DNA of 64,000 nt from a bacterium (GTDB lineage Bacteria > Patescibacteriota > CPR2 > UBA1875 > JAJYID01): contig JAJYLR010000001.1 in assembly GCA_021787535.1 (NCBI GenBank), positions 492,321 through 556,320 on the forward strand, read 5' to 3'. Positions 7,661-62,094 of this stretch are shown here, one piece after another. How positions within the stretch are numbered: the first letter of the stretch is position 1; each line of letters opens with the position of its first letter. Below the pieces are notes generated by a model. The model saw only the letters and a program-made list of their open reading frames with translations, was not told the origin of the DNA and ran no database searches. The position numbers and the translations under genes were made by a program.

Positions 7661-8422
7661 ATGCGTATCAATAAGTACATTGCTTCTTGCACTAACTTAT
7701 CCCGCCGAAAGGCCGAGGTGCTGGTTTTGACGGGCAGAATAAAAATAGATTCTTCGCCTGTCATTCCCGTCCGCCGAGAGTCGGGTAAACATCCGGCGGG
7801 AATCCAGTCAACTGCTGAGACCGTAACAAATTTAGCCACTGAAGTTAGTCCTTCTGACAAGGTATATTTAGATGACAAATTGATTACTCCCCAAAGATTT
7901 GTTTACTATGCGCTTAATAAACCGGTTGGGTACACAACAACGACTTCCGACCCACATGCCGAGAAATTGATTACCAACCTCGTCCCAAATGATCCGCCCG
8001 TTTTTCCGATCGGCCGGCTTGACAAAGACACCTCCGGACTTATATTTCTCACAAATGACGGCGACTTCGCCCAGAAAATGACTCACCCAAAATACGAGAA
8101 AGAAAAAGAGTATATCTTCCAAACTGACCGAAAATTATCTGAGGAATCACTTGAAAAATTGCGAAAAGGAATTGAACTTGATGACGGCATAACCGCACCC
8201 GCAAAAGTTAAATCCCTTGCCAAGGGATGGACCCTTGGCAGTCATTCTGGCCCTGACCAGAATCTATATTCCATCACCATTCACGAAGGCCGAAACCGCC
8301 AAATCCGCCGAATGATTGATGCCGCCTGCGCAAAGGTGATCACTTTAAAGAGAATTAGAGTAGGGGATTTTGAACTAGGGGATTTAAAAGAAGGAAAATA
8401 TCAAATCTTCAAGCCAAAATGA
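7661..8422 (+). CDS. rluB: pseudouridine synthase, RsuA/RluB family with N-terminal S4 domain (carries two in-frame palindromic-repeat insertions)
   Basis: MRINKYIASCTNLSRRKAEVLV S4 motif; FPIGRLDKDTSGLIFLTNDG catalytic Asp motif; EGRNRQIRRM; start moved to MRINKY (ORF track extension upstream unsupported). Confidence 0.8.
   Translation: MRINKYIASCTNLSRRKAEVLVLTGRIKIDSSPVIPVRRESGKHPAGIQSTAETVTNLATEVSPSDKVYLDDKLITPQRFVYYALNKPVGYTTTTSDPHAEKLITNLVPNDPPVFPIGRLDKDTSGLIFLTNDGDFAQKMTHPKYEKEKEYIFQTDRKLSEESLEKLRKGIELDDGITAPAKVKSLAKGWTLGSHSGPDQNLYSITIHEGRNRQIRRMIDAACAKVITLKRIRVGDFELGDLKEGKYQIFKPK
7760..7805. repeat. palindromic repeat GTCATTCCCG...CGGGAATC (family B) inserted in-frame in rluB S4 domain
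   Basis: GTCATTCCCGTCCGCCGAGAGTCGGGTAAACATCCGGCGGGAATC; near-identical copy (rc) at 9212..9256. Confidence 0.7.
8241..8265. repeat. palindromic repeat GTCATTCTGGCCCTGACCAGAATC in-frame in rluB
   Basis: family A copy; translated as GSHSGPDQNL inside catalytic domain. Confidence 0.7.
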
Positions 8423-8424
8423 TC

Positions 8425-8447
8425 GTCATTCTGGCTTGACCAGAATC
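8425..8447. repeat. palindromic repeat GTCATTCTGGCTTGACCAGAATC (family A)
   Basis: 3 nt after rluB stop. Confidence 0.7.
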
Positions 8448-8476
8448 TTCTTTATTTTCTCGAAAATTTTGCTATA

Positions 8477-9091
8477 ATGATTTCACTTGGAGGGAATGTA
8501 CCTTCTTTTTTAAATCTGCAAACCAACAAGGAAGGGAGCACCATGTACATGTCATTTTTAGACTTTGCTTATATCGTTGCTATGATGATAGTTATAGGCG
8601 TATCCGTAGCCATCATCATTGCGACAGCAAAGGGCAGGGGCGCGAGTGAGTTCTATTACTTCCTGCTCGGTTTAATCTCCTTCATCGGCGTATCCGGCAT
8701 CATTTTTAGAGCGCTCAGTATGGGAGGGGTTCTCGAAGGGCTGAGCAAAGAATTTACCTGGACTTTCTATATTGCCTTTCCGGCAATATCGTCTCTCGTG
8801 CTCCTTGCCGTTGTCTGTGTCCATGACGATTACGTCGATCTACAGAATGATAAAAGGGCGCTCGAAGACATCCAGAACAGTCTCGGCCATTACAAGCATG
8901 GTGATAAAGACCATAACCTTTTTGTTGCAATCAGCAACCTGCAAGGGCACGTGGCGAATCAGGAAGGGGTTATTAAGTCACAGGACGAGGAACTAGCAAA
9001 ATTAAGGAAAGATAACGATCTGCTTAGGCAAGAAATGGCAGATCTGATCGACTCTATAACCACGCCAACTGTTGAAGAAGTGCTTTCATAA
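8477..9091 (+). CDS. hypothetical membrane protein with C-terminal coiled coil
   Basis: 2-3 hydrophobic helices then heptad-like EELAKLRKDNDLLRQEMADL; start uncertain (alt. Met at 8543). Confidence 0.4.
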   Translation: MISLGGNVPSFLNLQTNKEGSTMYMSFLDFAYIVAMMIVIGVSVAIIIATAKGRGASEFYYFLLGLISFIGVSGIIFRALSMGGVLEGLSKEFTWTFYIAFPAISSLVLLAVVCVHDDYVDLQNDKRALEDIQNSLGHYKHGDKDHNLFVAISNLQGHVANQEGVIKSQDEELAKLRKDNDLLRQEMADLIDSITTPTVEEVLS

Positions 9092-10265: not shown

Positions 10266-10290
10266 GATCCTGAATCAAGTTCAGGATGAC
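10266..10290. repeat. palindromic repeat GATCCTGAATCAAGTTCAGGATGAC (family, reverse orientation)
   Basis: rc GTCATCCTGAACTTGATTCAGGATC. Confidence 0.6.
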
Positions 10291-10299
10291 AGAAGAATC

Positions 10300-11727
10300 A
10301 TGTACAAAGTAGCACTGATCGGAAAACCAAACGCCGGGAAAAGCACTCTTTTTAACACTTTGCTTAAAAAGAGACAAGCTATTACCACAAATATACCCGG
10401 CACAACCCGCGACTGGAACGAAGAAGCCGCTTCTTTTGATGGCTCCCAATTTATTCTAGCCGATACGGCCGGCATAGAGCTAAAAGTTCCGAAAGGCGAC
10501 GAACTGAAAGAAAAGGCCTATAAGAAAATCCGGCAAAACTTAAGCACAGCTGATCTTTTTATTTTTGTGGCAGATAGAGAAACCGGTATCACAGAAGAAG
10601 ACCGAAAAATTATTAAAGAAGTCAGAAAATATGGCAAAGACATCTTGCTTGTCGTAAATAAAATTGACAGCCCGAGGAATAAGCCATCTTTGGCAGAGTT
10701 TCATAAACTGGGACTCGGCGAACCGCTTGGGGTCTCAGCCGAGCATAAAAGGGGAATCGAAAATCTTTTGAATGAGATACAGAAACGAATTCCTTCTCCT
10801 GTCATCCCGAGCGAAGCCGAGGAATCCCTTATTAATCGAGAGAGAAATGGATTTCTCCATTCGTCACTCCTTGATGTCAGTCGAAATAACAAAGAGATCA
10901 AGGTGTCTATTCTTGGCCGGCCAAATGCCGGGAAATCATCGTTTCTAAATAAACTGATTAATGAAGAAAAGTTCATCGTCAGCGATATACCGGGTACTAC
11001 GAGAGACGTGAATTCAACTTATCTCGATCATGAAGGCCAGGTAATTAAATTTCTAGATACAGCAGGTCTCAGGCGCCGGGGCAAGATAGGCAAAATGCCC
11101 GGTAAAGGCAAGGAGGGTCTCATAGAAAAGTTCTCCGCTGACCGTGTCAGAAAAACCTTGGAAGAGTCCGACATCGCGCTTTTAGTTCTAGATCCGACCG
11201 AACCGATAACTTCACAGGATCTGCACGTGGCGGGCTATATCAAAGATGCGTATAAGGGAATCATAGTAGTTGTAAATAAATGGGATCTGGCAAAGGAAGA
11301 AAAGCTGGCTCACGGATATGATACGGTTGAGAAGTTTTCTCGCCTCGCTCAGCATAAACTCGACTTCCTGCCGTATGCGCCTATCATTTTTGTTTCTTCG
11401 CTGACCGGTAAAAACGTTTCCAAAGTTTTGGATCTTATTCTGGAAATCAAAAAAAGACGAGAACAAAAGATTCCTACCAGCGATTTAAATAGTTTATTAA
11501 ATGAGTCAATGGCTAGAAAGAAGCCGCAAAGCGTAGATAAACATCAGGTCAATATAAAATACGCCACGCAAACAGGCGTAAACCCTCCAGAGTTTATATT
11601 CTTTGCAAACTATCCTCAAAAAGTGCATTTTTCATACCGCCGATTTCTGGAAAACCGCATTCGGGAAAAGTGGGGCTTCACCGGTACCCCGATAAGAATT
11701 ATTTTCAAATCAAAAAGTAAGCCATAA
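10300..11727 (+). CDS. der: ribosome-biogenesis GTPase Der (EngA), tandem GTPase domains + KH-like domain
   Basis: two P-loops GKPNAGKST and GRPNAGKSS, DTAG motifs, NKxD (NKID/NKWD). Confidence 0.9.
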   Translation: MYKVALIGKPNAGKSTLFNTLLKKRQAITTNIPGTTRDWNEEAASFDGSQFILADTAGIELKVPKGDELKEKAYKKIRQNLSTADLFIFVADRETGITEEDRKIIKEVRKYGKDILLVVNKIDSPRNKPSLAEFHKLGLGEPLGVSAEHKRGIENLLNEIQKRIPSPVIPSEAEESLINRERNGFLHSSLLDVSRNNKEIKVSILGRPNAGKSSFLNKLINEEKFIVSDIPGTTRDVNSTYLDHEGQVIKFLDTAGLRRRGKIGKMPGKGKEGLIEKFSADRVRKTLEESDIALLVLDPTEPITSQDLHVAGYIKDAYKGIIVVVNKWDLAKEEKLAHGYDTVEKFSRLAQHKLDFLPYAPIIFVSSLTGKNVSKVLDLILEIKKRREQKIPTSDLNSLLNESMARKKPQSVDKHQVNIKYATQTGVNPPEFIFFANYPQKVHFSYRRFLENRIREKWGFTGTPIRIIFKSKSKP

Positions 11728-12226: not shown

Positions 12227-12587
12227 ATTGTTTGGTGTTTTACTGAGCCCATTGTCACGAAAAGAGAATCCCGAATTTCAAAAAAAGAACGTGAGTTTGA
12301 TAAGATGCCAAACATGACCTTTACACTTTCTCCTCAGTTCTCGGCGCCTCGCCGCCGCTTTGCGTTTATGCGTTCAGGGGGCGCAGGATGAAAAAAATAA
12401 GTCGAGAAGGAGAGGAGAAAGAAGCAGCGATTTTTCCGCGGAGAATCGCTGCGAGCAGTGGGAATTTTGGCAACATGAAGTCGACCGCCAATCTCACTGC
12501 ACCTCGCAAGGGATAGTTTATTTATCTGCACATGGCGGATAAATTGTTCTTGCGGGGCGAAAGGGGCGCATATGCGCCCCTTTTTTT
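12227..12587 (+). ncRNA. candidate structured non-coding RNA (~360 nt), unidentified class
   Basis: bounded by consensus promoter and strong terminator; locally GC-rich (>55%) in AT-rich genome; multiple complementary segments (CTTTCTCCTC/GAGGAGAAAG; GCAGCGATT/AATCGCTGC 9-bp stem); no convincing ORF. Confidence 0.35.
12563..12587 (+). terminator. rho-independent terminator
   Basis: 18-bp perfect palindrome GGGGCGCATATGCGCCCC followed by TTTTTTT. Confidence 0.8.
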
Positions 12588-12588
12588 A

Positions 12589-12617
12589 TTTACTTGGATT
12601 AGCCAAAACGATAAAAT
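12589..12617 (+). promoter_or_regulatory. putative promoter TTTACT-N17-TAAAAT, leaderless (ATG 7 nt downstream)
   Basis: read directly. Confidence 0.35.
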
Positions 12618-12624
12618 ATTAATT

Positions 12625-13245
12625 ATGAAAGTAAAAACGCTTATAGTAGGATTAGGAAATCCGGGTGAAAAATACGAAAAAACCCGACATAATGCAGGAT
12701 TTATGGTGCTGGACGTGCTCTGCAATAATTTTAAATTTGAAAAAAAATTTAATGCGGAAGTTTGCCGGCTCTCCTCCTGTCATTCCCGCGAAGACGGGAA
12801 TCTAGATTCTGAACAAGCCAGAATGACAAATGAAGGAGATATTATTTTGATGAAACCCCAAACCTTCATGAATTTATCAGGCGAGGCAGTCCAATCTTTT
12901 GCCGGTTATTACAAGATTCAACCAGGAAATATTTGGATAATCCACGATGATATAGATATTCCGTTTGGAGAAATTAGAGTGAAAAAAGGCGGTTCTTCGG
13001 CCGGACATAAAGGAGTTCAGTCGATAATTGAAAAAATGGGCACAGAAGATTTTTGGAGGTTTCGAGTTGGCGTTAAAAATAATGATTTAGCAAGAATAGA
13101 AACTGAGGATTTTGTACTGCAAAGATTTAACCCTGATGAAGCAGGAGTTTTGGATAAAATAATAAATTTAGCTGCAGATGAAATAAAACTGTTTTTAAAG
13201 GAGGGAACACTTGAGGCAAAAACTCTAAAATTGAATAAAAAATAA
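12625..13245 (+). CDS. pth: peptidyl-tRNA hydrolase (with in-frame palindromic-repeat insertion)
   Basis: MKVKTLIVGLGNPGEKYEKTRHNAGF ... KPQTFMNLSGEAV Pth signature; ~20-aa insert CRLSSCHSREDGNLDSEQARMT encoded by repeat 12779..12827. Confidence 0.85.
   Translation: MKVKTLIVGLGNPGEKYEKTRHNAGFMVLDVLCNNFKFEKKFNAEVCRLSSCHSREDGNLDSEQARMTNEGDIILMKPQTFMNLSGEAVQSFAGYYKIQPGNIWIIHDDIDIPFGEIRVKKGGSSAGHKGVQSIIEKMGTEDFWRFRVGVKNNDLARIETEDFVLQRFNPDEAGVLDKIINLAADEIKLFLKEGTLEAKTLKLNKK
12779..12827. repeat. compound palindromic repeat GTCATTCCCGCGAAGACGGGAATC + TAGATTCTGAACAAGCCAGAATGAC inside pth
   Basis: two family members fused; in frame. Confidence 0.7.
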
Positions 13246-49952: not shown

Positions 49953-50426
49953 TTATTCTGTTTTTTCGTTCTTTCGGTCTTTTGTTGATTGGCGCTTAGC
50001 CAATTTATTAACCTTGCCGCCTTTTTTCACAATCTCTTTTTCTGCCTTTTCCGAAATATGCTCAACTGATACTTCTACTGCTTTATCAAGCTTACCGTTT
50101 GCCAAAACTTTAACCGGTAACTTGGTATTCTCAATAATTCCTTTTTCGAGAAGTTTTTCTTTGGTGACTTTGCCGCTGAACTGGTTTAAATCAGACAGAT
50201 TGACAACTTGATTTTTGGGCCGGCGGGACTTGAATCCTTTAAGCTTGGGTACTCTCTGAATAAGCGGCATCTGGCCTCCTTCGAAACCAACTCTCACCTT
50301 GCCGCCGGATCTTGATTTCTGGCCCTTTGTACCTCGTCCGGAGGTTTTCCCCAAACCGCTTCCTATACCTCTGCCAACCCTTTTGCTTGTTTTGCTTTTA
50401 ATACTGGATAGTCCGTGTAGATTCAT
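49953..50426 (-). CDS. rplO: 50S ribosomal protein L15
   Basis: G/K-rich N-terminus [20 protein letters not shown]. Confidence 0.92.
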
Positions 50427-51010
50427 TTTTTACCTTTCGCTTTTTCCTTAGATTTAACGGTTTTTTTTGCCTTGCTTTCCGTTTCTTTTTTCGTTTTAAC
50501 TGCTTCCGGCTTTTGTTTTTTCTCTTTTTTTAATGCTTGCCCTTCTCTTTCTGATAAGCTTTTTAATGCCTCGAAAGTTGCATAAACGTTATTAATCTTG
50601 TTTGATGACCCGATCATCTTAGACAGGATGTCTGTAATACCGGACACCTCAACTACCGCCCTTACCGCGCCGCCGGCTATCACACCCGTACCGGGATGCG
50701 CCGGTTTCAAGAATACTTTAGCGCCGCAATATTCTTTCATAACCTCATGAGGAATACTAGTTTCGTGAATGTTGATAGTCACCAAGTTTTTCTTTGCCTG
50801 CGCCACAGCTTTTTGAATAGCCAAAACCACCTGAGAAGCTTTAGCGACTCCCACACCAACTCTGCCTTTTCTATCGCCGATAACAACAGTAGCTCGAAAT
50901 CTAAGCCGCCGGCCGCCTTTTACCACTCTCGTGACACGATCAATTTGGACAACCTTTTCTTCAAACTCCTTCGGTTCTCTTTCAAATGTTCTGCGTATAT
51001 TTTCTGCCAT
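50423..51010 (-). CDS. rpsE: 30S ribosomal protein S5 (K-rich C-terminal extension); no rpmD follows
   Basis: dsRBD + S5 C-domain ([15 protein letters not shown]...). Confidence 0.92.
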
Positions 51011-57111: not shown

Positions 57112-57396
57112 TTAAATCCCCTTAAACTCCTCAATCTTATCGCCTTTCTTAACAGTCACATATGCTTTCTTAAAATCCGATCTTTTGCCAAACTTTCTTC
57201 CTACTCTTTTTACCTTACCTTTCATAACAACTGTTTGAATATTTACAACTGTGACTTTAAAAAGTTTCTCAATTGCCTTTGCTATTTCAATCTTATTCGC
57301 ACGGCTATCTACCACAAAAACATATTTTCCTTCCTCAGCTTTTGCAAAACTTTTCTCGCTTATAACCGGCCTTTTTAAAATTTTTGTTGTTTCCAT
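57112..57396 (-). CDS. rplW: 50S ribosomal protein L23
   Basis: ILKRPVISEKS. Confidence 0.92.
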   Translation of the reverse strand: METTKILKRPVISEKSFAKAEEGKYVFVVDSRANKIEIAKAIEKLFKVTVVNIQTVVMKGKVKRVGRKFGKRSDFKKAYVTVKKGDKIEEFKGI

Positions 57397-58013
57397 TATT
57401 TATCCCCCTTAACTGATCCTAAAGAATTGCCTAAAAATACAATCTTTTTAGCCCAAAGCACATCGTAAACATTCATATTTTTCTTTACGCAAACCTTTAC
57501 TCCGGTTTTTAAATTCCTTAAACTTTTAGTAATTTTTTCATCTGATTCTTCTGTTACAACTAATACATTTCTGTCTAACCCTATTTTTTTAAATAAATCA
57601 GCAAATACCTTTGTAGAAGGTTTTTCAAGCTTTATTGCCTTTATCGCCAGGATATCTTCGTTTTTCTTCGTTGCAAGGGCCGCGGCCAGTGCGGCCTGGG
57701 CTTTCTTCTTTGGCATTTTCAGTTTGAAGCTTTGCTCGCCGGTCGGGCCAAATGTCACTCCGCCTCCGCGCCAAATAGGTGATCGGTTTGATCCTGCTCT
57801 GGCTCTGCCTGTGCCTTTCTGCCTCCACGGCTTCTTGCCTCCGCCTGAAACTTCGGACCTGTCAAGCGTGTTGGCCGGAGCTTGTCTTTTATTGGATGAA
57901 ATAATATAAACTGCCTCGGTCACAAGAGCCGGGTTGACTTTCCCGTCAAAAAGTTTGGTATTTAAACTTTCTGCCGTCTTTTTCCCTGTTTTATCGTAAA
58001 CTGCTACTTTCAT
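57396..58013 (-). CDS. rplD: 50S ribosomal protein L4
   Basis: GGGKKPWRQKGTGRARAGS. Confidence 0.93.
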   Translation of the reverse strand: MKVAVYDKTGKKTAESLNTKLFDGKVNPALVTEAVYIISSNKRQAPANTLDRSEVSGGGKKPWRQKGTGRARAGSNRSPIWRGGGVTFGPTGEQSFKLKMPKKKAQAALAAALATKKNEDILAIKAIKLEKPSTKVFADLFKKIGLDRNVLVVTEESDEKITKSLRNLKTGVKVCVKKNMNVYDVLWAKKIVFLGNSLGSVKGDK

Positions 58014-58728: not shown

Positions 58729-58843
58729 ATGGATAGTTTCCCTAAGGACTTTTCCATACCCCGACGGTTAAATATTCATTCCGTTATATTGCAATAACTT
58801 AAAAGATTATAAGGCTTCTCACACTAAAAGTCAACTCTAAAAC

Positions 58844-59386
58844 CTACTGTCTACGTTTTTTTTTAAAAATATTCAAAGGAATCAAAAGTATTTTCTTTGC
58901 TTCGGCCTTTACTGGAACATTCCAACCTATTTTTTCTTTAGCTTGAATCATCGAAAGCAGTTGAAAAGGATGAAGTTTAGTGAAATTGCCTTCAAAAGCG
59001 TGTTTTATCTTTTTTCTATCGTCTTTTGGCAACAATTTTTTGAGTTCATCTTTGATAGTCGAAGGAGTAAAAATATAAATATCAGTTATACCTTTTCGTT
59101 TAATAATATCATCCAGGATTTTATCCATTTCCTTCAAAAAACGGTGCCTGATTTCAACTTTGTTTGTCTCAAGAACAGACCCGGATTCTAAAACCCTGCC
59201 ATGCCCGGCAGTTTCAAAAAATCCTTCTTTATCTGAATAGTGTGGATATAGAAGCTTGAACTCTCCTATTTTTTCTATTCTGCCATTTTTAGCAATATAG
59301 AAATCAGCTTCGTGAAGGCCGGTAACGACAATTAAAGCTTTTTGATTTTGGAACTGTGGCAAATCTCTGGTTATCTTCATAATCAA
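58844..59386 (-). CDS. hypothetical protein (180 aa); speculative eRF1/Pelota-like fold
   Basis: ORF only; part of non-ribosomal block inserted between rplC and rpsJ. Confidence 0.4.
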   Translation of the reverse strand: MIMKITRDLPQFQNQKALIVVTGLHEADFYIAKNGRIEKIGEFKLLYPHYSDKEGFFETAGHGRVLESGSVLETNKVEIRHRFLKEMDKILDDIIKRKGITDIYIFTPSTIKDELKKLLPKDDRKKIKHAFEGNFTKLHPFQLLSMIQAKEKIGWNVPVKAEAKKILLIPLNIFKKKRRQ

Positions 59387-59434
59387 AAATATAACAAATA
59401 TTATACAAATTTTATTTGTTTAATTTTATAAATT

Positions 59435-59471
59435 AGACCCCCAGAGTGTGAACACCCTGAGGGTCTTTTTT
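59435..59471. terminator. hairpin + T-run (bidirectional terminator-like)
   Basis: AGACCCCCAGAGTGTG-AAC-ACCCTGAGGGTCT imperfect stem then TTTTTT. Confidence 0.5.
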
Positions 59472-59476
59472 AGAAA

Positions 59477-60184
59477 CTACTTGCGATGCCCAATAAATGA
59501 AAGGTTGGGTATCGACTCCTCGGCTTCCTCCACACCATCTATAACCAGATTCTCCTGTGTCCCTACTACAGCACCGCATTTTATGCAGAAACTGGTATAG
59601 ATGTGTTTATACCCTGAGGTTGCAGGAGGGGTAACCAAAGGACCTGCTTGCCCAACTGCCTCAAGCTGGCCTCCCACAAGACGCATTTTCCCGCGGCGTC
59701 TAGGCTGACAACTCTCAACCGTATAGATGGAACCGGTTTTCTCAACTTTCGAACGGCATGGTTTTCCGTCAATGTGTCCTCCACAGAGTGGTTTCATATT
59801 CTCGGGTTTGCCTTGCTGATAGCAAGCACCCCAGAGGTATGAAGGCCGAAATGCCTCGGCATAGGTCAGTATGTCTTGAGGCGGCCTACCCGCAATGCAT
59901 ACAACATTCTCAACTCCTCTACCATTGCCGAATGTGTGATCAGCCGGAAGACTAATCGAGATCTCAGGCAAATCAAACTCGATGTACATCCCTTGCGCTT
60001 TCACAAGTAGAGACTGCCTGAAAGTCTGTAATTGTACTGTCCCCCCCTTCCCGCTAGATAAACCAAAGAGTTTAAAAGATCTGAGATGCCGGCAAGCATG
60101 ACATGACCCAAGCAATGGATAAGGATTCCCTTCTCTGTCAGCGGATTTGTAATAACTTTCTGCTGTGACACTAGTATCGTCCAT
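59477..60184 (-). CDS. hypothetical Cys-containing protein (235 aa), moderately GC-elevated (~48%)
   Basis: only long ORF in any frame here; Cys pairs (CHAC, CIKCG); no family recognised. Confidence 0.35.
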   Translation of the reverse strand: MDDTSVTAESYYKSADREGNPYPLLGSCHACRHLRSFKLFGLSSGKGGTVQLQTFRQSLLVKAQGMYIEFDLPEISISLPADHTFGNGRGVENVVCIAGRPPQDILTYAEAFRPSYLWGACYQQGKPENMKPLCGGHIDGKPCRSKVEKTGSIYTVESCQPRRRGKMRLVGGQLEAVGQAGPLVTPPATSGYKHIYTSFCIKCGAVVGTQENLVIDGVEEAEESIPNLSFIGHRK

Positions 60185-60193
60185 GATATCTCC

Positions 60194-60556
60194 TTAATCT
60201 TCGGCTGTCAGTAAAAAATCGAGGTCAAGTGATACAGTTGCCAGCAAGGCGTCTTGATAATTTTTGACTCCCGAAAGACAAATAAAACCCGGATGGCTAA
60301 AATCAGGATCCTCGTCGTGATTGTTAAAATATATCACGCTTCCGGTCGACGTTTGGCAAAGGTAAACATCATGACGGTCTTTTAGCTTAAAAACTCTTCT
60401 TTCTCCCAAAAAAGTACAAAATCGACATCCGCTATCCGGACCTCCGCATTTGATTTTCTCTACAGGGAAAAAATCTTTTTTCAAAAGTCCCATCGTATCC
60501 CCTCTCTCAATCTTGAGTAGTTCATTTGAAAAGTTGCACATAAAAAAGGAGGCCAC
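60194..60556 (-). CDS. hypothetical Cys-containing protein (120 aa)
   Basis: GTG start with GGGAGG SD; CGGPDSGCRFC motif; no family recognised. Confidence 0.3.
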   Translation of the reverse strand: MASFFMCNFSNELLKIERGDTMGLLKKDFFPVEKIKCGGPDSGCRFCTFLGERRVFKLKDRHDVYLCQTSTGSVIYFNNHDEDPDFSHPGFICLSGVKNYQDALLATVSLDLDFLLTAED

Positions 60557-60684
60557 CCCTCCCTTTTATGAATTTATTTAAATCAAATTTACCACAAACT
60601 TTTTCAAGGTGTCAAATCTGTCCCATTGAAATATGGAATTTCGCTCAATTCGTCAGTTAAACTTGTCAAAACAAGATAAAATTT

Positions 60685-61164
60685 CTACTCTAAAATCGGG
60701 TGTTTTTTGACAAAGTTATGATTTTTCCACCACTTTTCGAGACCTAAATATTGTCCGGCGCCGACTGAAGCCAGGGTCAGTAAAACAAGGATGTAAATGA
60801 TGTGTTCGTCAATGAATGGATTAGTTTTGATTGGCATCACGCTAAGCCAGATTAGAAACATCAACACTGATCCCACGTAAGCAGACAGTTTCATATGAGT
60901 ACCAAGCAAAAACCCAATTCCCGCAAAAAGCAGTCCCAGTATGAAAAGCCAGTCAACCAAGGGATTGCCTGCCATACTATGAAATGTAGAAGCAAATGGT
61001 CCATGAACGCTCTTTAAATACCCGGCTGTAGGCGAAACCCCATCGATCCATGCCTTGCCGGCTTTGGTAGCATACCCCAAGCCAAATATTTTATCCAGCC
61101 CAGCCCAGAAAAGTATCCACCCTATTGCGATCCTTAAAAGTCCGAATAAATATTCTTTTTTCAT
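60685..61164 (-). CDS. DoxX-family integral membrane protein
   Basis: 4 TM helices, LLRIAIGWILFWAGLDKI DoxX signature. Confidence 0.7.
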   Translation of the reverse strand: MKKEYLFGLLRIAIGWILFWAGLDKIFGLGYATKAGKAWIDGVSPTAGYLKSVHGPFASTFHSMAGNPLVDWLFILGLLFAGIGFLLGTHMKLSAYVGSVLMFLIWLSVMPIKTNPFIDEHIIYILVLLTLASVGAGQYLGLEKWWKNHNFVKKHPILE

Positions 61165-61263
61165 TTTTTACTCCTTTAACCCTTATTTGTAAGGATTTTA
61201 ATAAATCTAAGCTTATAATAGCTTAACATAAACATATTACAATACTTTTTTTGGATTTGAAAA

Positions 61264-61289
61264 GGGCCGGCGCGCATGCGCGCCGGCCC
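61264..61289 (-). terminator. GC-rich rho-independent terminator (26-bp perfect palindrome)
   Basis: GGGCCGGCGCGCATGCGCGCCGGCCC followed on minus strand by TTTTCAAATCCAAAAAAAG. Confidence 0.65.
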
Positions 61290-61326
61290 TTAGGCGAGAA
61301 TATGTTACTTTCTCACCTTGTTACTT

Positions 61327-61932
61327 TCAGCGAGTGTTGAAATGCTCCGCCAGTTTCGCGGTATCGATTTCAACAGATTCCACAGAGATTTTCACCCCAA
61401 GAAGCCCCGGAATCTCCATTGCCTTGCATACCCCATCGGCCTCTTCGACAACCGGTTTCACGATGAAGACGTAGCCGTGAGAGTGAGAAATCTCCACGGA
61501 AGTTCCCGCTTTGATCACCTCGCCAGTCGAGGAGATCAAATAAATCGGAGTCGCCCCGACCATGACCCGGGCCATCATTGCACCGCCTCTGCCCTCATGG
61601 CAGATATCCTGGTCCATGATGGCCGTCTTCACACTCTTCCTCGGCTTTCTCTGCCAAGGCTTTGTGGACTGCACTCCGAGAAGCATACACAGATCTTCGG
61701 CAGAATTGACCACCGTTGAACCGCCCTTCTTCTGGCCGGCCTTCGGCTTGAACAGCTCCAGTCCGACTCCATTTCTGCCGTTCAGTCTTGCAACCACCCT
61801 GGTGTTTAACTGGATTGGAGCACCAGTGTGGTTATTGATGAACATTTTCCCGGTCTTGCTGTTGCCGATCGTGAGACCGTCCGTGGGTACTACAAACCCA
61901 CGGATCTTGACATGCTTCGGGTTGTTGCTCAT
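61327..61932 (-). CDS. hypothetical protein (201 aa) in a 52-55% GC compositional island
   Basis: long ORF, strong GC3 bias unlike neighbours; no family recognised. Confidence 0.4.
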   Translation of the reverse strand: MSNNPKHVKIRGFVVPTDGLTIGNSKTGKMFINNHTGAPIQLNTRVVARLNGRNGVGLELFKPKAGQKKGGSTVVNSAEDLCMLLGVQSTKPWQRKPRKSVKTAIMDQDICHEGRGGAMMARVMVGATPIYLISSTGEVIKAGTSVEISHSHGYVFIVKPVVEEADGVCKAMEIPGLLGVKISVESVEIDTAKLAEHFNTR

Positions 61933-62029
61933 GACAACCTCCTGATTGCACGGCTAACCTTTTGTAGCCGAATAGAAAAGTCTAACATAAAATCTTCATG
62001 TTGTCAATGTTTTTATGCTTCAATTTGCG

Positions 62030-62064
62030 TAAAAATCAAAGAAACCCGCAAATTGCGGATTTCT
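62030..62064 (-). terminator. hairpin terminator-like element directly after rpsJ
   Basis: GAAAcCCGC-AAATT-GCGGaTTTC stem, T-rich on both sides. Confidence 0.4.
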
Positions 62065-62094
62065 TTTTCAGTCTCTAACCAAAGTTAGAATAAA

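Follow-up and report, generated by a model that had tools for sequence, protein, structure and literature searches.

Messenger RNAs can be stabilised by a 5′-terminal stem-loop together with a 3′ hairpin, as in the E. coli ompA leader and the B. subtilis aprE and ermC leaders. Genes of unusual base composition are commonly taken for recently acquired foreign DNA, and under the Lawrence and Ochman model their atypical composition is reportedly expected to undergo classical amelioration. Here we consider an orphan gene for which the inference of recent foreign origin fails. It is the open reading frame (ORF) at 61327..61932 on the minus strand of a 64,000-nt stretch of contig JAJYLR010000001.1 (the window, i.e. 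the whole stretch of DNA that was analysed). The unusual point is a long-lived, gene-specific GC bias at third codon positions (GC3) in AT-rich hosts. On balance we think it probable that this is a genuine orphan gene in a mobile cassette, with an old GC bias that is maintained, probably by selection on the transcript, and with a product that may bind nucleic acids.

The ORF has a GC content of 0.536, with 0.530, 0.416 and 0.663 at the three codon positions, against a background of 63 long ORFs in the window with a mean GC of 0.406 (standard deviation 0.033) and a mean GC3 of 0.390 (standard deviation 0.058). It is an outlier at z ~4 for GC and ~4.7 for GC3, and the runner-up among the 63 reaches a GC3 of 0.519. 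Measured in 600-nt windows, GC is 0.528 at the ORF versus 0.415 and 0.397 on its two sides. GC3 is high along the whole coding sequence (CDS; 0.52–0.80 per 25 codons), and almost every codon family favours its G- and C-ending members alike; AT-ending codons are what the ribosomal protein genes and the EF-Tu gene use. Beyond the cassette that carries the ORF, GC is 0.23–0.33, the exceptions being the leader, the first 40 nt past the stop codon and the terminator hairpin (0.40–0.60). A first-pass annotation of this DNA had put the excess over the flanks at about 15 percentage points; the excess stands (z ~4) but measures 11–13 points. The comparison of GC3 and codon usage that it proposed leaves the gene clearly distinct from its neighbours.

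In the databases the orphan family amounts to five clusters: nothing else came back from 5.8 billion proteins, queried three times by word index, or from 1.84 billion representatives scanned exhaustively with a profile. A sixth copy, at locus L007, is 1 aa off the P0002 protein. Identity to the window protein is 85% for P0002 (loci L002 and L007), 70–71% for P0003 (L001 and L003) and ~47% for P0004 and P0005 (L004 and L005). The gene call in L004 was too short, the true ORF being L004:9734-10426. There were no further homologues in JGI metagenomes, IMG/VR, or phage and plasmid collections, and a scan of GTDB genomes gave the L001 species again and nothing further. Every copy occupies one slot, with a 159-aa DoxX gene 3′ of it in all loci; rpsJ lies directly 5′ of the gene in the window, L002/L007, L004 and L005, and the contigs of L001 and L003 begin inside an rve-type transposase that lies shortly before the promoter of the ORF. 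The host loci are AT-rich (0.39–0.43 GC). In the window, S5 and L15 share a 4-nt overlap (49953..51010, minus strand) with no L30 gene between them, and the same holds in L004 and L005. The S5–L15 arrangement without L30 is a hallmark of candidate phyla radiation (CPR)/Patescibacteria-type genomes, and because L30 is absent and the source contig measures 636 kb, the small AT-rich clade that holds the family is probably of this type.

All copies share the bias: GC and GC3 are 0.546 and 0.634 in L002, 0.498 and 0.542 in L001, 0.537 and 0.636 in L004, and 0.541 and 0.655 in L005, with the neighbours of the gene at these loci at a GC3 of 0.28–0.51. An outlier in every copy, confined to AT-rich hosts and lacking a GC-rich source, the gene must be subject to a force of its own at synonymous sites. 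Between the window and L001 the synonymous divergence (dS) of the ORF is 0.84, inside the 0.5–1.8 range of 12 flanking genes; the gene was therefore present in their common ancestor and is not recent in the window. Between the window copy and the L004 copy, identity at two-fold sites is 0.49 (~0.55 expected at saturation), so that these sites are saturated, and identity at four-fold sites is 0.53. We considered excess synonymous constraint and rejected it: with four-fold identity at 0.53 but two-fold sites saturated, the gene does not clearly exceed its neighbours. We also applied a two-state decay model, taking the equilibrium GC3 of the neighbours (0.33–0.38) and halving the pairwise dS. A gene that began at GC3 = 1.0 would by now have come down to 0.45–0.49 over the deep split, versus the 0.64–0.66 observed; for the window/L001 split, a starting GC3 of at least 0.95 would be needed. 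Because passive decay even from GC3 = 1.0 falls below what is observed, the bias must be maintained. Synonymous changes polarised since the window/L002 split comprise 21 from A/T to G/C and 15 from G/C to A/T, where decay predicts ~3/4 in the latter direction. We conclude that the GC bias of the orphan gene is at or near stationarity and is not a remnant of foreign origin.

This bears on the origin proposed in the first-pass annotation, a recent acquisition from a high-GC donor. Mobility is upheld, since the gene is accessory and has been swapped within the clade. Recency is not, as the gene occupies the corresponding site in the sister lineage L001, at a dS in the flanking-gene range. The high-GC donor also falls away: the family is found only in AT-rich genomes, GC3 is 0.54–0.66 across copies as little as 47% identical, and, as to the taxonomic profile of best hits that had been suggested, the collections searched yield homologues in the AT-rich clade only, none of them in a high-GC organism.

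The evidence for movement comes from comparing the ORF with its flanks, using in addition loci L006, L007 and L008, which were found by exact look-ups with EF-Tu and S10. The flanking genes of the window and L001 have amino-acid identities of 0.83–0.95 at dS 0.5–1.8, and those of the window and L007 have identities of 0.70–0.90 with dS >2 or undefined (tuf: identity 0.96, dS 1.16). For the ORF the order is reversed, with identity 0.71 for window–L001, and identity 0.86 and dS 0.57 for window–L007. Because there is no special synonymous constraint between the window and L001, the low window–L007 dS indicates that the cassette was transferred after the lineages split. A four-point test on non-synonymous divergence (dN) groups the ORF as ((window,L007),(L001,L004)), and L3 and the other flanks as ((window,L001),(L007,L004)). 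The high-similarity tract between the window and L007 extends from ~61990 to ~61200; in a sliding profile, identity drops from ~0.85 to ~0.70 near 61200. Replacement is seen between L006 and L007, which have identical EF-Tu proteins and flanking-gene dS of 0.03–0.52, mostly ~0.2. Where L007 has the ORF, the slot in L006 holds an AT-rich TrpR-like gene (GC3 0.32), and a NUDIX gene in L006 stands in place of a 149-aa ORF of L007. Divergence between these two loci is higher towards the 3′ end of rpsJ and in DoxX (dS 0.72–0.81), which is the pattern expected from recombination through the flanking genes.

In the window, the gene order on the minus strand is the end of fusA, tuf and rpsJ, then a ~3.3-kb gap in which the ORF comes first, then rplC, rplD and other ribosomal protein genes. 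The gene content of the rpsJ–rplC gap (58729..62094 in the window) varies among the window, L001, L004, L006, L007 and L008; among the relatives it includes TrpR-like, NUDIX, class IV aminotransferase, ABC-F and zinc-ribbon genes, the 149-aa ORF and an rve-type insertion sequence (IS). DoxX is the only gene found in every locus that spans the slot. An IS (rve) and repeats resembling miniature inverted-repeat transposable elements (MITEs) lie at the slot in L001 and L008. In L008, the window's S10 protein is followed by an ABC-F gene bracketed by ~80-bp palindromic repeats (8324-8630 and 10288-10456; TGTAAAGGTCTCGAGCATCTTG...) that match L001:540-670, an IS end beside an rve transposase fragment; L008 and L001 may be adjoining parts of one arrangement. 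There is no copy of this IS terminal repeat in the window. The rpsJ–rplC gap is thus a gene-exchange hot spot in the clade. That the cassette is accessory and dispensable argues against a core ribosomal role for the orphan protein. Of the properties by which genomic islets are recognised, atypical composition, tree conflict with the flanks and patchy presence (L007 has the gene, L006 does not) were found here; recent arrival in the window genome and an identifiable donor of matching composition were not.

The 61327..61932 CDS, supported by the ORF, by codon-position changes and by the orthologue alignment, encodes 201 aa with a pI of 9.6; the gene is truly protein-coding and belongs to a very small orphan family. 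The three closest copies have dN/dS of 0.14–0.23, i.e. purifying selection, and differ at codon positions 1, 2 and 3 by 17, 14 and 61 changes; indels among orthologues are of whole codons only. In AT-rich genomes structured RNAs stand out as islands of high GC, ORFs of 127–133 aa run antisense to the CDS, and the third positions of the antisense frame coincide with those of the sense frame so that dN/dS alone cannot tell the strands apart. Nevertheless, that the locus is a GC-rich structured RNA, or that the antisense ORF 61562..61945 (plus strand) is the coding one, seems to us barely credible. An Rfam search gave no match at gathering or E-value thresholds, and RNAalifold on a five-locus alignment supports only the leader and terminator hairpins and no conserved helix inside the CDS; we rejected a structured RNA accordingly. 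The sense ORF is intact in all copies, with codon-sized indels and with promoter, Shine-Dalgarno sequence and terminator. Antisense stops occur at the frequency seen in codon shuffles, and L004/L005 do not keep the antisense ORF intact; we rejected an antisense gene on the stop counts.

The cassette appears to be monocistronic and ~0.8 kb long, running from a promoter of its own to a terminator of its own between the rpsJ terminator and the DoxX gene. The rpsJ intrinsic terminator (62038..62066, minus strand; AAAGAAAUCCGCAAUUUGCGGGUUUCUUU plus a U-run) was found by terminator scan at −16.9 kcal/mol (z −5.8). It is near-identical in L002/L007 and L008, differs in L004/L005 and L006, and lies between rpsJ and the cassette, keeping both apart. 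A predicted sigma-70-type promoter follows at 61979..62007 (minus strand; TTGACA, 17 nt, TG-n-TAGACT with an extended −10). It matches the consensus at 10/12 positions plus the TG, is in the top three of a 20-kb scan and is kept at all orthologous loci; judged by sequence, it would act as the cassette's own promoter. A 19-nt direct repeat around the cassette is simply the shared extended −10 promoter motif. At 1–3 nt from the predicted transcript start, a 5′ leader stem-loop (61949..61972, minus strand; CGGCUA-CAAAAGGU-UAGCCG) occurs once in the window and shows a compensatory C-G to U-A change in L004/L005 and A-U to G-U in L001. It may serve as an mRNA stabiliser. The Shine-Dalgarno sequence AGGAGG (61939..61944, minus strand) is 6 nt 5′ of the ATG, and its GGAGG is invariant at all loci. 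It sits partly within a small hairpin, GCAAUC-AGGA-GGUUGU (61933..61950, minus strand), with AGGA in the loop, which is superficially like a CsrA site; the upstream leader loop is without GGA.

At the other end, a predicted intrinsic terminator (61258..61291, minus strand) consists of a 30-bp perfect palindrome, whose 13-bp, mostly G-C stem is closed by a 4-nt loop, and of UUUU directly after it. The first-pass annotation had described a 26-bp GC-only palindrome at 61264..61289. The palindrome is there (GGGCCGGCGCGC-AT-GCGCGCCGGCCC, with perfect symmetry reaching 30 bp at 61262..61291), but 24/26 of its positions are G+C and the centre is AT. Its contrast with AT/GC-mixed terminators elsewhere holds roughly, as a few other terminator-like stems are GC-rich, though of only 8 bp. 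On the coding (minus) strand the hairpin has a stability of −29.1 kcal/mol and lies 37 nt past the stop codon; no other terminator-like hairpin in the 64 kb is as stable, the runner-up reaching −19.7 kcal/mol. Its position is kept across loci, with compensatory changes at 4–5 stem pairs over L001, L002 and L004/L005. In the window the stem is followed by UUUU and then CAAAU, which falls short of the scan's requirement of 5 or more T in 8, and two of the U can pair with AA at the base of the stem; the U-run in L004/L005 is UUUUUU. In stem, position and covariation the hairpin would fit an intrinsic terminator with a short U-tract. The palindrome half, searched through the window, occurs at the terminator site only. 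In the five-locus RNAalifold analysis, compensatory changes are confined to the helices of the leader hairpin and the terminator. Downstream, a DoxX promoter-like site (61215..61242, minus strand; TTGTAA, 16 nt, TATTAT) lies at the 3′ edge of the window–L007 high-similarity segment. A second palindrome of similar design, shorter and of −18.4 kcal/mol, occurs at 12560..12583 on the plus strand (AAAGGGGCGC-ATAT-GCGCCCCTTT then TTTT). It sits in the first 50 nt of ORF 12532..13245 (plus strand) and not 3′ of a gene end.

At the far end of the gap, a near-consensus promoter is predicted for rplC (58806..58834, minus strand; TTGACT, 17 nt, TATAAT). With the rpsJ terminator on one side and this promoter on the other, the S10 operon would be split into separate transcription units. 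Two further genes of the gap may be recorded. The 235-aa ORF 59477..60184 (minus strand) has a raised GC of 0.486 and no family match, and the protein collection holds no second member of its cluster; it stands where L001, L003 and L004 have a 113–118-aa double zinc-ribbon gene and has no DNA or protein similarity to those loci. The 180-aa gene 58844..59386 (minus strand), just upstream of rplC, gives weak baeRF (bacterial eRF1-like) and Host_attach matches (E ~1e-3, below cut-offs). Its counterpart in L001 and L003 is two ORFs, which suggests a frameshift or pseudogene.

The orphan protein has a basic N-domain (pI 10.5), a variable Lys/Arg/Pro/Ser-rich linker at about residues 86–104 (pI 12) and an acidic, beta-rich C-domain (pI 5.2), and on our reading the N-domain would be rich in beta strands too; orthologues have an overall pI of 9.1–9.9. 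Sequence and profile searches of Pfam, NCBIfam, PHROGs and the PDB gave nothing significant, and PADLOC defence models matched neither the ORF nor its neighbours in the window, in agreement with the first-pass finding of no recognisable motifs. A likeness of the stretch KPWQRK to ribosomal protein L4 had there been judged coincidental, and rightly so, since the stretch varies in orthologues (TNPRQRK, KPWYKPRK, KPSAPKRQ). L4 (uL4) itself, which is recognised by the Ribosomal_L4 profile and a conserved KPWRQKGTGRAR loop, was rejected as an identity for the protein: there is no Pfam or NCBIfam match, and the true L4 gene is at 57396..58013. No internal duplication of the two domains was detected. 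An AlphaFold2 (AF2) model from five sequences reached a mean predicted local distance difference test (pLDDT) score of 52.5, and with three sequences a useless 31.7; the C-domain (~residues 100–180) was modelled at pLDDT 60–77 with five consecutive strands. Foldseek against the PDB and BFVD returned nothing significant (best E 0.045–0.07, TM ≤0.2). The weak top matches were nearly all nucleic-acid binders of the oligonucleotide/oligosaccharide-binding (OB) fold: uS17/eS11, HIN-200, cold-shock domains, aminoacyl-tRNA synthetase anticodon domains, SSB and IF1. They agree with a sub-threshold match to NfeD (PF01957) at residues 134–160, seen in 2/5 members (E 0.06, 14 bits versus a cut-off of 29.1). 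From the model and composition, our low-confidence guess is a basic nucleic-acid (RNA) binder, possibly with a role related to translation. H7, H35, C82 and H112 are invariant in the orthologue alignment, and we speculate that they might form a metal site.

We favour the following account of what keeps the gene GC-rich. Lineages of the clade would swap the accessory cassette by recombination through conserved flanking genes, with loss or replacement possible. The GC-rich codon usage would be old in every host and, having outlasted passive decay, would be maintained. The most likely cause would be selection for a stable, well-expressed mRNA, with the RNases of the cell favouring AU-rich RNA, and protective hairpins at both ends of the mRNA would fit such a stable transcript. 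The predicted strong promoter, 5′ hairpin, strong Shine-Dalgarno sequence and strong 3′ hairpin suggest a unit for a stable, well-translated mRNA. Selection on the transcript is accordingly our preferred explanation, and we infer that it maintains the GC. In 5/5 orthologues the CDS has a more stable fold than its synonymous-codon shuffles (z −4.2, −4.0, −3.7, −2.4 and −3.1), although as support for selection on mRNA structure this is only suggestive. A more ambitious form of the account, in which a clade-specific nucleic-acid-binding protein of new fold, encoded near the ribosomal genes, is kept GC-rich by mRNA selection as a kind of 'GC armour' through saturation and transfer, is possible but doubtful.

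A number of points weigh against this account. Among 23 control genes the folding z has a mean of −0.8, a standard deviation of 1.4 and a minimum of −3.45, which places the ORF at the edge of that distribution; moreover, conserved helices are absent from the CDS and covariation scores unfavourably (+5.7). High expression alone does not demand a high GC3 here, because EF-Tu and the ribosomal proteins, whose genes are surely highly expressed, are encoded with AT-ending codons. In the decay model the equilibrium is taken from the neighbours and the distances are rough NG86 values, and a neighbouring-gene control shows that the parsimony count leans towards A/T to G/C changes, for which reason we gave less weight to the polarised result. 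The hairpin in the window is followed by a tract of only 4 U. Finally, the guess at function is built on a poor model (pLDDT 52.5) and on non-significant fold matches.

A recent import from a high-GC organism, with GC3 as a donor signature that has yet to ameliorate, was the view of the first-pass annotation. A strong compositional outlier in an orphan, accessory, mobile gene that adjoins an IS element in L001 would be in keeping with it. We nevertheless hold it to be very improbable, because L001 has the gene at the same site with a dS equal to that of the flanks, the deeply diverged copies (47% identity) in other AT-rich hosts are GC-rich too, the collections searched hold no homologue outside the clade, and the promoter, leader and 3′ untranslated region are AT-rich and native in type. 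An unsampled GC-rich reservoir (plasmid, phage or partner organism) that re-seeds each lineage at the slot before decay has some points in its favour: the slot has demonstrably seen movement and replacement, one ancient import would not leave GC3 so high, and the lowest GC3, that of the L001 copy (0.54), could mean longer residence. IMG/VR and the phage, plasmid and metagenome collections gave no match, though, and the divergence between the window and L001 fits vertical descent. Every copy also carries AT-rich, native-type promoter and leader sequences together with the DoxX-promoter flank, so that the transferred unit looks native to AT-rich genomes; we regard a reservoir as unlikely.

We give similarly little credence to GC-biased gene conversion, by which a recombination hot spot would push third positions to G/C without selection. 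Recombination at the locus is documented, and the GC3 of rpsJ (0.42–0.51) is somewhat raised relative to other ribosomal protein genes. The GC enrichment, however, ends sharply at the borders of the CDS, and with the TrpR-like gene in the same slot of L006 AT-rich (GC3 0.32) and DoxX ordinary, the bias belongs to the gene and not to the place; a slot effect of this kind is unlikely as the sole cause. Control at the level of codons, where rare G/C-ending codons slow or gate the gene's own translation, to the benefit of folding or to make it depend on particular tRNAs, would account for a shift that covers nearly all codon families uniformly along the CDS, and a GAG-specific tRNA-Glu(CUC) in the window means that dedicated tRNAs for G-ending codons exist. 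The strong promoter, strong Shine-Dalgarno sequence and stabilising hairpins argue instead for high rather than throttled output, and we think this explanation improbable.

If the force proves to be selection on mRNA stability or expression, as we prefer, the gene would offer a natural test case for transcript tuning in reduced-genome (CPR-type) bacteria. The analysis also brings out an undescribed protein family and the exchange of genes between rpsJ and rplC in its clade. Among known systems, units of the REP/RAYT and IS200/IS605 kinds resemble the cassette in its ~0.8-kb length, its single ORF, its hairpins at both ends and its GC-rich perfect palindrome; they differ in that the cassette has no Y1_Tnp match and its palindrome, which occurs once in the window, acts like a terminator. 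We rejected such a unit on these grounds and because the HSH...Y stretch (residues 150–154) is not conserved in L004/L005, where H150 and H152 vary. The C-domain recalls the NfeD C-terminal and OB-fold barrels in its five predicted strands and weak matches to both; it departs from them in a Pfam score below the cut-off and the lack of a significant fold match, the model being too weak to exclude the fold. With mRNAs of the ompA, aprE and ermC type, the cassette shares a hairpin a few nucleotides from the predicted 5′ end, a strong Shine-Dalgarno sequence and a very stable 3′ hairpin. Unlike them, it has a short (6-bp) leader hairpin and a GC-enriched coding body, and its transcript ends are those predicted from sequence. 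The likeness to genomic islets and ORFans (orphan ORFs) at core-flanked hot spots extends to a single-gene cassette of atypical GC3, patchy presence, tree conflict, and an IS and MITE at the slot. Unlike an islet, the cassette is without an identifiable foreign donor and without a mobility gene, and its composition stands undecayed across copies only 47% identical, contrary to classical amelioration.

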